This document shows positions 1-62,057 of a stretch of DNA of 64,000 bases, in pieces. Positions within the stretch are counted from its first letter, which is position 1, and every line of letters begins with the position of its first letter. The position numbers and the translations under genes are program-made. Below the pieces are notes generated by a model. That model did not search any database. It saw only the letters and a list, made by a program, of their open reading frames with translations, and had not been told where the DNA came from. Source of the DNA: Promethearchaeota archaeon (lineage in GTDB: Archaea > Asgardarchaeota > Lokiarchaeia > Sigyniarchaeales > SOKP01); the NCBI GenBank assembly GCA_019058365.1, contig JAHPZE010000007.1, positions 1 to 64,000 of the forward strand, in the 5' to 3' direction.

Positions 1-120
1 TGGATACAATTTAATACCAAGTGGTCTTCAAATCACTGAATTTTGTAGCTAATCAATTATTTTTCTTTAAATAGATTCGCCTATAAAGTAATTAAAAAGC
101 AAGGTGAAGCACATTTGTCA

Positions 121-422: not shown

Positions 423-1249
423 TTAGAGGCCTTTAGGGCCTTGCTTACATATTTCATAGGCTTCGTCTACAGAAGCATTCTCATGAACTATCGCTCGAAC
501 TGCTTTAATCATTCCAATAGGGCTGTCACTTTGAAAGATATTTCTTCCCATATTTACGTCTATAACTGTAAAAATCAGTTATAGTCTACGCCGACAGCTC
601 CTTTGTCAATTGCATCTTTTGACATCTGTAGTGCATCTCTTTCTTCGATCTTTTTTCCTCCTGCGATTACAATTGGTGCTGGACAAATACTTGTTACTTC
701 TTCAAAGTTCTCGCAATAATAGGTCTTTACAAAAGTAGCACCCATTTCTGCAGCCATTCTACTTGCCATCCCTAGATAACGTGCATCTCTTACCATTTCT
801 CTTCCAACGGCAGTGACAGCTAATGTAGGAATGCCATATTCTTGCCCCCAATTTACTAACTTTGAAAGGTTCATTAAAGTTTGCTTCTCATATTCTCCTC
901 CTACAAAAATTGAGCAAGTAATAGCTGATACATTCAATCTTATCGCATCATCAACAGTAACATTTATTTCTTCATTAGAGAGCTCTTTTAACATTGAAGC
1001 CCCCGCTGATACTCTTAAAACAATAGGTACATCAATTTCAGAAGGTACACAGTTTCTAAGCATCCCTCTTGTCAACATAAGAGCATCAGCATATTCAAAT
1101 AAGGGCTTCATATCAGTGAAACATTTTAATTGACTGGGAACGTTTCCAAAATATCCATGATCAATAGCTAACATAACGCACCGCCCACTCTTTGGTTTAA
1201 TTATTCTGTTAAAGCGGTTCTGAAAACCCCAATCACCCACTACAACCAT
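423..1249 (-). CDS. lsrF: LsrF-like class I aldolase/thiolase; spliced gene complement(join(423..553,586..1249)), 264 aa
   Basis: Motifs [29 protein letters not shown]. The ORF stops at ...GAVGVDYN*, but the conserved C-terminus [23 protein letters not shown] continues in another frame to TAA 425-423. Removing 554-585 gives GAVGVDMGRNIFQ. Confidence 0.9.
554..585 (-). other. 32-nt bulge-helix-bulge intron in lsrF mRNA
   Basis: Sense RNA: GCGU [AG^A] CUAUAACUG AUUUUUA CAGUUAUAG ACGU [AA^A] UAUGG. Central 4-bp helix GCGU/ACGU, two 3-nt bulges, perfect 9-bp intron stem; cutting at ^ restores frame and motif. Confidence 0.88.
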
Positions 1250-14824: not shown

Positions 14825-16249
14825 TTATAAATTTTTAAGTGCAATTTTTTCTAATTCCCTAATTAAATGTTCATCAATAGGACATATGGAGGATGCATTT
14901 AATAGTTTAGATGCTTGTTCTTTAGCCCTTTTTCTAACAGATTTAGAACCATTCTGTTTCCAAGCATCACGCGTCATTCTATCTATTATTGGACTTGGAA
15001 AGAATAATTCTTTTCTAAAATATTTCAGGGTTGATGGATGGGATAAAAGTTCTTCTTTATCTTCATAATCTTTTAGAATTTCTGAAGCAAAAGGAGATCC
15101 ATGATCTTCAATACCTTGAATTAATCTTTTTACCATCCCTACTATTTCATTATCAATAATTAATTTCTCAATACTTTGGGTTGATTCAAAATCAAGCATT
15201 CCAGGACCAGAAACCATATTTATCCCTGCTAATCCTGCTAATAGAGCTCCCATGCCGGCTTCAAAACCCGCTTGACCATCGGGTACTTTAGAATCGCTAA
15301 GTGACATATATGCATGAGTGGGCAAATTTAAGAGTTTTCCCATTTCAACATCACCAAGATTTATCATCATCGTTTCTATTGCACCCATTGGTGTCGTTCC
15401 TTGTTTCATATCAAAAACAGCAGGAGAACCACCCCAGATTAAAGGAGCTCCTTGTTTGGTTAACTGAACTATTACAGTCCCAGCAAGGCATTCCGCACAG
15501 TGTTGAGTAATCGATCCAATCAAGGTGATTGGAGCACTAGCTCCCGCTAATGGCATTGAAACAAATTCAGAGGGGATCATACTTTTTGCAGCATCAATTA
15601 ATGATTGTGTAGTTAGATCTGACCATTTAAGAGGTGGACTTGGACATGCATCAAATATAGCCAGTGGTTTTCTCGCTAAATCATCTTCCGATTGCCTACA
15701 TGTTAATAGGATCTCTCGCATGATCGAGAAGCTTTCTTTGCGAAATGTTCCAGTAATAACGGGTTTATAGCAATTAGACAACGCGAGATCTAATCTATGC
15801 CAATCTTGAGCGTCTTTTGGTACATCATTATAAATTAATGCTGTACTTTGAGCATCGATATATTTCAATTGTTCAACTACTTTTGAAAATCTTATGAAAT
15901 CTTTTGATATTGCTTCTCTAATATCCCCTGTTTCCTCATCAAGGATGAAAATTGCAGCAGACCCTGGATCAAAATTAACATTATCTTCCTTCAAAGTAAT
16001 ATATTCATTACCCTCTCGGTCGTAAAGGGTAATCTCACTTGGTGCAGTATCTAAACATTTATTAATTAAATCTGGTGGGATATAATAACGTGAACCTTCA
16101 TGATTTATACCATTTTGATTAAATAACTCAATTGCTTCCTGATTCTCAATAAAAACTCCTTGAGTTTCGAGAATCATTTTAGCTTCTTCCAAAATCTTTT
16201 GTTTATGTTCTTCATCTAATATTTTTATCTGTGGTCTTATAATTGGCAT
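14825..16249 (-). CDS. mttB: Trimethylamine methyltransferase family protein, non-pyrrolysine (MtgB-like)
   Basis: SPPLKW, GASAPITLIG, SDSKVPDGQAGFE, GPGMLDFE motifs; Leu at the Pyl-equivalent position; no in-frame TAG. Confidence 0.85.
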   Translation of the reverse strand: MPIIRPQIKILDEEHKQKILEEAKMILETQGVFIENQEAIELFNQNGINHEGSRYYIPPDLINKCLDTAPSEITLYDREGNEYITLKEDNVNFDPGSAAIFILDEETGDIREAISKDFIRFSKVVEQLKYIDAQSTALIYNDVPKDAQDWHRLDLALSNCYKPVITGTFRKESFSIMREILLTCRQSEDDLARKPLAIFDACPSPPLKWSDLTTQSLIDAAKSMIPSEFVSMPLAGASAPITLIGSITQHCAECLAGTVIVQLTKQGAPLIWGGSPAVFDMKQGTTPMGAIETMMINLGDVEMGKLLNLPTHAYMSLSDSKVPDGQAGFEAGMGALLAGLAGINMVSGPGMLDFESTQSIEKLIIDNEIVGMVKRLIQGIEDHGSPFASEILKDYEDKEELLSHPSTLKYFRKELFFPSPIIDRMTRDAWKQNGSKSVRKRAKEQASKLLNASSICPIDEHLIRELEKIALKNL

Positions 16250-32407: not shown

Positions 32408-33976
32408 ATGAAATTAAAAGTTAAAGAAATTAATTTTGAAACCGGAAATGCGAAAGATATTGTTTTAAATATTAAGGATGCTCAAGAATTAGGACAAAAA
32501 GCAGGAGAACGCGTTATAGTAAAAAATATTAGATCAAAATCTATTGAAGAAAAGTACTGGGTAGCAATAATACAAATAGATTTCCTAGGTTCTATTGTTG
32601 AACCTGGAGAAATTGGAGTATTTCTTAATCTTTTAAGAGAGAAAAAAGATTTAAAAAATGAAATGATTGTCTCTGTGAGACCAGCAGATCCACCCGACTC
32701 TTTTAGATTTATACAAAAAAAAATAAAAGGACAAAAACTTTCTAGCGAAGAAATAAATAATATTATATCTGATGCGGTTTCTGGATCCCTATCACGGATA
32801 GATCTAGCAGCATTCATAACAGGAGTATCTATTAATGGCATGGACAACGAAGAAATGACGGCTTTAACTCTATCGGAAACTAGGAGTGGAGAAATATTTT
32901 ATTTCGGAATGGATGTCTACGATAAACATAGCACAAAAATCTATATTTCGTAGGTTTTGTTAAAAGGTGGCGTCCCAGGGAATAAGGTATCTCTAATTAT
33001 CGTTCCGATTGTCGCTGCTGCCGGATTAACTATTCCAAAATCTTCAACAAGAGCCATAACATCCCCATCAGGTACAGCAGATTCAATGGAGGTCTTAGCT
33101 CCTATTGCATTTAATCCAGAAGAATTAAAAAGTATTGTATCTGAACAAAATGCATGTATAATCTGGGGTGGAGCTCTTGAAACTGCTCCAGCAGATAATA
33201 TTCTAATAGAAATTGAGCGTCCTTTACATATGGATCCCATAGGTCTTATGATACCGTCTATTCTAACAAAAAAGCTTTCATTAGGAGTTAAAAAGCTTGT
33301 TCTTGATATACCTGTAGGGGAAGGCACTAAATTTCCTACAATCGATAAAGGAAAACAGTTTGCTTATTTATTTAAAGAAATTGCTGCAAATGTTGGAATT
33401 GAAGCAGAATGTGCGCTCACCTTGGCTCATCAACCTATAGGTCATGCGGTCGGTCCTGCTTTAGAAGCTAAAGAAGCACTTACATTATTACGTGATTATT
33501 CTGCTGGACCAAACTCTTTAATAGAAAAGTCTACTGATTTAGCTGGTATTCTTCTTGAAATGAGCGGAAAGGCTCAAAAAGGTATGGGACAAAGCTTAGC
33601 GAAAGATATTTTACGCTCTGGTAAAGCTTATGAAAAAATGAAAAAAATTATCGAAGCTCAGAAGGGAGATCCAGAAATAAAACCCGAAGATATTAAGCTA
33701 GGACCATATATTAAAGAATTTTTTGCTTCTAAAGATGGATATATAGTTGATGTAAATAATTCAATAATAAATCGAATCGCAAAAACTACAGGTTGCCCCA
33801 ACTCGAAGAGTTCAGGTGTAGAGATAATTAAAAAACAAGGTGCAAAAATAAAAGAGGGAGAATTAGTATTTAGAGTCTATTCCCATAATGAATCTAAATT
33901 AAGAAAGGCAGAAAAAATTTATAATAGTACGGGAGGTCCAATTCGTCTAGGAGGAATGTTGATTGAAAGAGTATAA
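32408..33976 (+). CDS. deoA: AMP phosphorylase; spliced gene join(32408..32934,32965..33976), 512 aa
   Basis: Archaeal AMP phosphorylase N-domain, KSSTRAITSPSGTAD and QPIGHAVGPALEA motifs. DKHSTGGVPGNK is split by a 30-nt insert containing TAG. Confidence 0.92.
32935..32964 (+). other. 30-nt bulge-helix-bulge intron in AMP phosphorylase mRNA
   Basis: UAGC [AC^A] AAAAUCUAU AUUUC GUAGGUUUU GUUA [AA^A] GGUGG. Central helix UAGC/GUUA, two 3-nt bulges, 9-bp stem; splicing gives CAU AGC ACA GGU GGC = HSTGG. Confidence 0.9.
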
Positions 33977-61952: not shown

Positions 61953-62057
61953 GCAGCTGTAGCCTAGATGGTAAGACGCCGGCCTCGAGCGTTCTTAAAT
62001 ATGATCAAGAAAGCCGGTGCGCATAAGCGCTCGAGGGTTCGAATCCCTCCAGCTGCG
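61953..62057 (+). tRNA. tRNA-Ser(CGA) with 22-nt intron at 37/38 (61990-62011)
   Basis: Acceptor GCAGCTG/CAGCTGC, discriminator G, anticodon stem CCGGC/GCCGG, CT-CGA-G, long variable arm GCGC-ATAA-GCGC, T-arm GAGGG-TTCGAAT-CCCTC; no encoded CCA. Confidence 0.93.

Follow-up and report, generated by a model that had tools for sequence, protein, structure and literature searches.

Among archaeal pre-mRNAs, splicing has been confirmed for crenarchaeal cbf5 alone, while introns elsewhere were 'predicted' and unconfirmed (PMC2738675), and the sole addition named in 2020 is a 46-nt bulge-helix-bulge (BHB) intron in the 5' untranslated region of HVO_1309 of Haloferax volcanii (PMC7714728). In Asgard archaea, tRNA genes are rich in introns and most of the 60 genomes surveyed carry two paralogues of EndA (PMC11291895; bioRxiv 10.64898/2026.10.13.758758); a literature search turned up no description of BHB introns in protein-coding genes of Asgard archaea. 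Here we describe a 32-nt insert at positions 554-585 (minus strand) of a 64,000-nt stretch of DNA, hereafter the window, from a Promethearchaeota (Lokiarchaeota-type Asgard) metagenome-assembled genome (MAG) of 4.74 Mb in 54 contigs with 29.5% G+C. The insert interrupts a gene of the LsrF family. We consider it probable, at roughly 85%, that this insert is a BHB intron of the HBh' type (central helix H and intron hairpin h', with the outer exon-exon helix h missing) in the pre-mRNA of a single LsrF-family gene, and that it is spliced by EndA and RtcB.

On this reading, the lsrF intron extends the cbf5-type class to another gene and another phylum. As in the pre-mRNA of crenarchaeal cbf5, which encodes a pseudouridine synthase, the predicted cuts fall between the second and third bulge residues (Watanabe 2002; Yoshinari 2006; Yokobori 2009, PMC2738675). 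Both introns split, in phase 1, an Asp codon that belongs to the most conserved motif, both show a patchy pattern of gain and loss among relatives, and the hetero-oligomeric type of EndA present in cbf5 hosts may, by analogy, be present in the lsrF host too. The lsrF intron differs in that it lies in an LsrF-family aldolase gene of Promethearchaeota (Asgard), has no sequence homology to the cbf5 intron, is a compact hairpin of 30-32 nt and occupies one of the three alternative intron sites that the gene has in different genomes; moreover, other genes of its host genome carry such inserts. Splicing of cbf5 has been shown experimentally, whereas that of lsrF is predicted. In eukaryotes, the HAC1/XBP1 mRNA is cut by Ire1 and joined by a tRNA ligase (RtcB in animals) in a stress-regulated manner. 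The lsrF case resembles it as a short, spliceosome-independent mRNA intron at stem-loop sites, with joining by a tRNA ligase and a change of frame upon splicing; the proposed endonuclease, however, is EndA and not Ire1, the recognition motif is another one, and stress regulation is a feature of HAC1/XBP1. With the non-canonical tRNA introns of Asgard archaea and Thermoproteales (Valentin-Alvarado 2024, PMC11291895; bioRxiv 10.64898/2026.10.13.758758; Marck & Grosjean 2003), the lsrF intron shares the motif classes hBHBh'/HBh', the size range, the proposed enzymes and the repeated gains and losses. There, the exons contribute tRNA structure to the motif; in lsrF they contribute coding Gly-Val codons, so that a synonymous site covaries with the intron. 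The HVO_1309 intron is likewise a BHB motif in an mRNA, and its cutting by the splicing endonuclease was shown by circRNA-seq and in vitro (Schwarz 2020, PMC7714728); unlike the lsrF intron, it is located in an untranslated leader and leaves the reading frame uninterrupted.

The interrupted gene occupies positions 423-1249 of the minus strand and encodes a protein of the DeoC/LacD fold (Pfam PF01791 DeoC, E = 5e-16). The unspliced open reading frame (ORF), 575..1249 (minus strand), terminates as ...GAVGVDYN at a UGA within the insert, and a downstream ORF of 42 aa, 423..551 (minus strand), reads MGRNIFQ...KGL in a different frame. Upon removal of 554-585, a single ORF of 795 nt is obtained, which encodes 264 aa and reads GVDMGRNIFQ. 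The gene is accordingly divided as follows.

586..1249, minus strand: exon 1 of the LsrF-family DhnA-type aldolase/thiolase gene, made of codons 1-221 and the first base (G) of an Asp codon; matches Pfam DeoC and NF006081.
554..585, minus strand: predicted intron of 32 nt, phase 1, within the Asp codon of GVD/MGRN; marked by a gap in 19 congeners, an HBh' fold and same-site inserts in 11 assemblies.
423..553, minus strand: exon 2, made of the AT of the Asp codon and MGRNIFQ...KGL, with the stop codon at 423-425; NF006081 positions 248-287, ratio of non-synonymous to synonymous substitution rates (dN/dS) 0.03-0.13.

Several matches bear on the identity of the gene. Exon 1 alone scores 322.8 bits on the NCBIfam equivalog NF006081 (LsrF; curated cut-off 297), and the intronless orthologue L024 scores 391.1 bits. 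In a structure search made with an intronless orthologue, the nearest solved structures were those of LsrF (3GKF/3GLC/4P2V, E = 3e-90, residues 6-258). In a family search of the whole genome, the two exons matched NF006081 at adjoining profile positions, 25-252 and 248-287; they form the only LsrF-family copy above the cut-off in the host genome, the sole further match being a distant paralogue below it. The phosphate-binding motif G-V-D-M-G-R-N-I-F-Q is contiguous only once 554-585 is removed, and it is identical in LsrF 3GKF. In exon 1, the stretch FVKTYY aligns with IIKTYY of LsrF, a stretch within which the Schiff-base lysine of the family is presumably found; exon 2 aligns, through the intronless orthologue, to residues ~250-289 of 3GKF. 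Judged by these sequence matches, the gene belongs to the LsrF family (3-hydroxy-5-phosphonooxypentane-2,4-dione thiolase; DhnA-type class I aldolase fold). The name lsrF used in an earlier note on this DNA is borne out by the NF006081 score above the cut-off and by 3GKF as the closest structure. By homology to LsrF, the product of exon 2 would comprise the loop that binds phosphate and the final helix of the TIM barrel.

The boundaries of the insert were set by alignment of orthologues, independently of any RNA model. On the minus strand the junction reads GGC GUA G/ACUAUAACUGAUUUUUACAGUUAUAGACGUAA/AU AUG GGA AGA, the insert being exactly window 554-585; it shifts the frame and carries an in-frame UGA. 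In all 19 congeneric orthologues first aligned (73-92% nucleotide identity), the gap is exactly 32 nt and the sequence reads GTN GAY ATG GG; overall, about 40 orthologues lack exactly these 32 bases. The alignment fixes the boundaries within one base, as either G/A...AA/A or GA/C...AAA/U. The earlier note had drawn the 32-nt insert, its frame shift and its UGA from the letters of the window, and the sequence, the ORFs and the orthologue gaps confirm all three. Its further claim that canonical cuts give GAT (Asp) and restore GVDMGRNIFQ also holds, the cuts matching the boundaries found in the orthologue alignment. It was right that exon 2 is intact for 42 codons and wrong that this exon is invisible in the ORF track, as the 42-aa ORF appears at a length cut-off of 30 aa.

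The minimum-energy fold of window 530-610 has a free energy of -19.6 kcal/mol (z = -3.43), and none of 200 shuffled sequences folded as well. It consists of a 4-bp GCGU/ACGU helix, a 3-nt bulge AGA, a 9-bp hairpin with a 7-nt loop and then AAA. From 5' to 3' in the transcript, its elements are the following.

588..591, minus strand: 5' strand of the central helix H, made of the exon bases GCGU that belong to the Gly-Val codons; pairs with 556-559.
585..587, minus strand: 5' bulge AGA; the predicted cut separates the G at 586, where exon 1 ends, from the A at 585, where the intron begins, from fold and alignment.
560..584, minus strand: intron hairpin h', a 9-bp stem (CUAUAACUG/CAGUUAUAG) capped by the 7-nt loop AUUUUUA, from the minimum-energy fold.
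556..559, minus strand: 3' strand of the central helix H, intron bases ACGU, from the minimum-energy fold and covariation.
553..555, minus strand: 3' 'bulge' AAA; the predicted cut separates 554, where the intron ends, from 553, where exon 2 begins, from fold and alignment.

Archaeal BHB motifs are cut between the second and third residues of each bulge (PMC2738675). The cuts predicted by this rule, 586/585 and 554/553, are the first of the two placements allowed by the alignment and restore GVDMGRN. When composition-matched shuffles of the insert were tested in the register that the alignment dictates, the geometry was matched by only 48 of 300,000 (chance ~1.6e-4); the real insert matches it in register 0 only, among registers -8 to +8. 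The 3' 'bulge' AAA is unpaired and not closed by an outer helix. By inspection, the outer exon-exon helix is essentially absent, as only G19.U59, a G.U next to H, can pair; because helix h is missing, the motif is HBh' and not strict hBHBh', and the relaxed BHB with a weak outer helix described in the earlier note is upheld in this form. The one flanking helix is h', the 9-bp intron hairpin, and HBh' is counted among the canonical motif classes in a 2026 preprint on Asgard tRNAs (bioRxiv 10.64898/2026.10.13.758758).

A scan of species-representative genomes together with a protein search identified homologous inserts of 30-32 nt at the same site in 11 other assemblies. The insert is 32 nt long in L030, L054, L055, L128 and L130 and 31 nt long in L125, L126, L127 and L129; in L023 and L029 it measures 30 nt and is in frame but contains a TAA. 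The 12 carriers (the host and these 11), all from independent assemblies, were aligned in register and compared for structure. Helix cells were paired in 96.8% of cases, compared to 31-43% when the 3' partner columns were slid by 1-3 positions; helix H was paired in 12 of 12 carriers (100%) and hairpin h' at 95.4%. Two-sided changes were found at five pairs (20 cells), four of them in hairpin h', and the covariation score was 0.442 compared to 0.246 +/- 0.025 for shuffled alignments (reached by 0 of 500), slid controls giving at most 0.111. The wobble base of the Gly codon (GGC/GGA/GGU) covaries with its intron partner, the pair being CG in nine carriers, AU in two and UA in one.

The coding sequence on the far side of the insert is also maintained. 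The joined ORF is 260-264 aa long in every carrier whose contig allows its reading. Among the five carriers compared (L030 was left out, its rows being one codon out of register), the dN/dS of exon 2 is 0.03-0.13, with saturated synonymous change and few replacements; L054 and L055 differ in exon 2 by 18 synonymous and 5 non-synonymous changes, and L023 and L029, whose common ancestor was a carrier by parsimony, give a dN/dS of 0.10. These substitution patterns place exon 2 under purifying selection among carriers, so that the selection check proposed in the earlier note came out positive, with dN/dS 0.03-0.13. The insert is genuine, conserved and constrained by structure. Its presence is also reflected in public databases: the entries of this family that are 216-235 aa long (P0018, P0023, P0034, P0054, P0067-P0069, P0080, P0091) include gene calls ending at the intron stop, and all six short entries that were looked up (P0018, P0023, P0054, P0067, P0068 and P0069; 223-228 aa) are carriers at this site whose call ends at the intron. 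A protein search for an entry identical to the joined product gave a best cluster representative 95% identical, a result that is uninformative on splicing.

Stop-containing inserts of 30 nt were found at two other sites of lsrF orthologues, after LAIDHG in L051 (1597-1626) and after QNRL in L059 (1541-1570). In both, a 4-bp helix, a 3-nt bulge and a hairpin can be drawn, and canonical cuts restore HG/YFG and NRL/NRI, respectively. The L051 register comes near the minimum-energy fold, where H reaches 5 bp and the exons form a further helix on the outer side. No start codon follows either insert, which argues against reading such inserts as boundaries of split genes. A different kind of interruption was observed in the orthologue L060 (MAG CSMAG_2517), where two in-frame TAA stand at the Glu codons of the others (VGG-stop-Y-stop-KQ compared to VGGEYEKQ) with no change in length; L060 may have decayed to a pseudogene or reflect a sequencing error, among other possibilities.

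Similar inserts are present in other genes of the host genome. The sole gene with Rpb1 domain 1, encoding RNA polymerase A' (Rpo1N), carries at C52:2085-2114 (plus strand) a 30-nt insert that ends in TAA and lies inside CxGHFGH/IELA. Its exons match Pfam RNA_pol_Rpb1_1 at positions 2-73 and 74-312, abutting at 73/74, and the insert folds into a GGAC/GUCU helix, a bulge AUU and then a hairpin. The interruption of this essential single-copy gene implies that the cell removes such inserts. In the window, a further 30-nt insert at 32935-32964 (plus strand) interrupts an AMP/thymidine-phosphorylase-like gene at DKHS/TGGV (Glycos_trans_3N before the insert, Glycos_transf_3 and PYNP_C after it) and folds as UAGC/GUUA, a bulge ACA, an 8-bp hairpin and then AAA. 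The insert is shared with the closest congener, G005, with a U.G to C-G change in the stem, and nine other congeners lack exactly these 30 nt. Both cases were pointed to by a genome-wide scan for a 4-bp helix, a 3-nt bulge and a compact hairpin with joined ORFs and a broken unspliced frame, and were then checked separately; the scan also recovered the lsrF intron.

The host genome encodes two proteins with an EndA domain (198 and 206 aa), whose genes lie at C26:34716-35312 and C12:101581-102201, minus strand, and one RtcB. One EndA paralogue is closest to 3P1Z_B/3AJV_B/2CV8, which we take to be catalytic subunits of crenarchaeal EndA enzymes, and the other is closest to 1A79. In published work, two-subunit and epsilon2 EndA enzymes are those that cut relaxed motifs. 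By analogy, the host pair may be read as a broad-specificity two-subunit enzyme.

From these elements we infer cleavage and ligation of the lsrF pre-mRNA. In the transcript, the exon GCGU would pair with ACGU near the 3' end of the intron to form the central helix, leaving the AGA bulge, the hairpin and the unpaired AAA. EndA would cut after the second nucleotide of each bulge, and RtcB would ligate the exons and probably circularise the 32-mer. The joined mRNA would encode the full enzyme of 264 aa, and unspliced RNA would give a 224-aa protein devoid of the phosphate-binding GRN loop and of the last barrel helix.

A number of observations weigh against splicing at this site or against its attribution to this genome. 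Firstly, since the outer exon-exon helix is missing, an enzyme of strict hBHBh' specificity would not be expected to cut the motif. Secondly, the single-sequence minimum-energy fold of three carriers, L030, L023 and L029, is a competing structure and not the BHB register, and the BHB register of the L059 insert is likewise an alternative to its minimum-energy fold. Thirdly, when metagenome contigs were scanned for exact matches to the joined junction, three hits resulted, all of them DNA contigs and none of them RNA-level support; these contigs (one of 81.9 kb) are distant intronless alleles, ~75% identical, so the exon flank of the carrier type is not exclusive to carriers. Fourthly, the genome-wide scan of structure plus ORFs returned 200 candidates compared to 197-203 for frame-shifted decoys, which is no excess; the scan is not specific, so no intron count was drawn from it and it says nothing either way. 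Finally, the 3' segment of the gene in which the intron lies is mosaic and is 423 nt away from a contig end occupied by a repeat, and a chimera between co-occurring strains is therefore possible.

This last point was considered together with the distribution of the intron. On a maximum-likelihood tree of 47 Promethearchaeota orthologues, the intron at the site occupied in the host (site 3) requires at least six changes: the host is nested among the intronless L024, L025 and L034 (99/98 support), and L054 is sister to the intronless L056 (100/100). Within a genus sample of 54 species representatives, 48 of which had a match, the only carriers are the host genome and G068 (the source of L030). 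In sister pairs made of a carrier and a non-carrier, divergence over the last ~190 nt of the gene exceeds that over the first 604 nt by a factor of 2-11. The divergence between the host and L024 is 14.4% in the 3' part (27/188) compared to 1.3% in the 5' part (8/604; p = 1e-11), that between L054 and L056 is 20.7% compared to 5.2%, and the median 3'/5' ratio in intronless pairs is ~1.3-1.5. This pattern suggests that the intron is gained or lost together with a 3' stretch of the gene, i.e. within a tract of allelic recombination. Delivery of the intron-bearing 3' end by an integrative element is unsupported as a general explanation: collinearity between the carrier L029 and the intronless L028 extends to either side, the 9.5 kb adjoining the displaced gene remnant described below yielded no integrase, and what looked like a free copy of exon 2 in G066 proved to be the end of a contig, beginning in sequencing-adapter sequence and adjoining an intronless allele.

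The same mosaic could have another origin, in which the intron-bearing 3' end (window ~1-645) was joined by the assembly from a co-occurring strain and the main strain of the MAG lacks the intron. The jump from 8/604 to 27/188 differences with L024 would be expected from such a junction. Homology to L024 and synteny with relatives end at the stop codon, and contig C32 contains, at C32:9329-9420 and together with the native downstream genes, a copy of the final ~85-92 nt of the gene that resembles L024; this remnant is preceded by an AAA_15/AAA_21 ATPase gene and by genes of unknown function. The contamination of the MAG, 6.57%, and the recurrence of the window 1-98 repeat at several contig ends point the same way. 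A real rearrangement with allelic replacement fits these data too, however, and the other carrier/non-carrier sister pairs show a 2-4-fold 3' excess compared to ~1.3-1.5 in intronless pairs. Either the locus is rearranged or the contig end is chimeric, and the choice bears on whose allele this is, not on the intron reading: chimera or not, the intron-bearing allele exists in nature, as 11 other assemblies carry it. We regard an assembly chimera as unlikely, though it is the most serious of the competing accounts.

As to the repeat itself, ~70-98 nt of window 1-98 recur with 82-96% identity at the ends of contigs C53 and C30, at position 31 of C54 and C31, at C46 249,749-249,677 and, likewise at high coordinates, at two places in C54 and C42. 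This sequence is probably one end of a repeated or mobile element at which the assembly breaks off.

If the insert were retained in the RNA, the gene would be either inactivated or split into a 224-aa piece and a separate 42-aa peptide starting at the conserved Met of GVDMGRN. Such a peptide is formally possible, since exon 2 begins one codon before this ATG, and no spliced RNA was seen in the junction scan of metagenome contigs. A pseudogene fits poorly with the low dN/dS of exon 2 (0.03-0.13) across saturated synonymous divergence and with the intact joined ORFs of 260-264 aa. A split gene, for its part, leaves unexplained the compensatory upkeep of helix, bulge and hairpin, including an exon wobble base, and the coincidence of the cut register with the orthologue gap. 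It is further contradicted by the inserts at the two other sites, with no start codon downstream, and by RNA polymerase A', for which function after a split at residue 80 is implausible. Retention of the insert is therefore improbable, and removal of the insert by splicing remains the preferred explanation.

Two further accounts fare worse. The insert is a near-perfect hairpin missing from the closest relatives, as would be a small mobile DNA element resembling a miniature inverted-repeat transposable element (MITE) that had recently hit the gene by chance; this is very improbable, given that the 32-mer occurs once in the 4.74-Mb genome with no second copy longer than 19 nt (blastn-short, on which repeat or MITE identity was rejected), that by inspection no target-site duplication is consistent with the boundaries, and that the identical site is occupied in 11 divergent assemblies with structure-preserving changes. 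Handling of the insert during translation, by ribosomal bypassing (hopping) or frameshifting, recalls T4 gene 60 superficially, with GAC just before and inside the insert (TAGAC...TAGAC) and a hairpin and stop after the first copy, but we give it almost no weight: landing on the second GAC adds Val-Asn, present in no orthologue, the TAGAC repeat is missing from L023, L029 and other carriers with 30- or 31-nt inserts, and the covariation fits the BHB helices and not a take-off/landing pair. TAGAC was rejected on the same grounds, the added Val-Asn and the lack of conservation among carriers, both as a target-site duplication and as a hop site. An archaeal oligo-T terminator in the hairpin loop was also rejected, as the T5 is found in the host genome only and is not conserved among carriers.

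Two other features of the window were recorded. At 61953-62057 (plus strand), a 105-nt tRNA gene missed by ARAGORN contains an intron, seen as ~22 extra nt around the anticodon loop, and its variable arm is long. At 15202-15300 (minus strand), a match to Rfam PYLIS_3, the pyrrolysine insertion sequence of mttB (45.3 bits compared to a gathering score of 38), suggests a gene for a pyrrolysine-containing trimethylamine methyltransferase in the host genome.

Beyond this gene, the balance of the data leans, with less assurance than for the lsrF intron itself, towards a genome-wide layer of EndA/RtcB mRNA splicing in Loki-type Asgard archaea. Hairpin introns of 30-32 nt would sit in the most conserved motifs of metabolic and essential genes (lsrF, the phosphorylase-like gene and RNA polymerase A') and would behave as mobile characters, with three sites in lsrF and at least six gains or losses at one of them, spread or lost by allelic recombination that carries the flanking exon. 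The lsrF locus is well controlled for such a question, with sister genomes that have and lack the intron in the same gene, 12 carriers and two further sites. If splicing does take place, gene callers working on Asgard genomes systematically cut such genes short or break them up, and Asgard coding sequence is also constrained by RNA structure. The questions of how introns arise and spread would become testable by comparative genomics. The closest prokaryotic relatives of eukaryotes would then interrupt their mRNAs and repair them via the tRNA-splicing machinery and, if the genome-wide layer is true as well, an intron-exon gene structure based on protein enzymes would exist in the closest archaeal relatives of eukaryotes.

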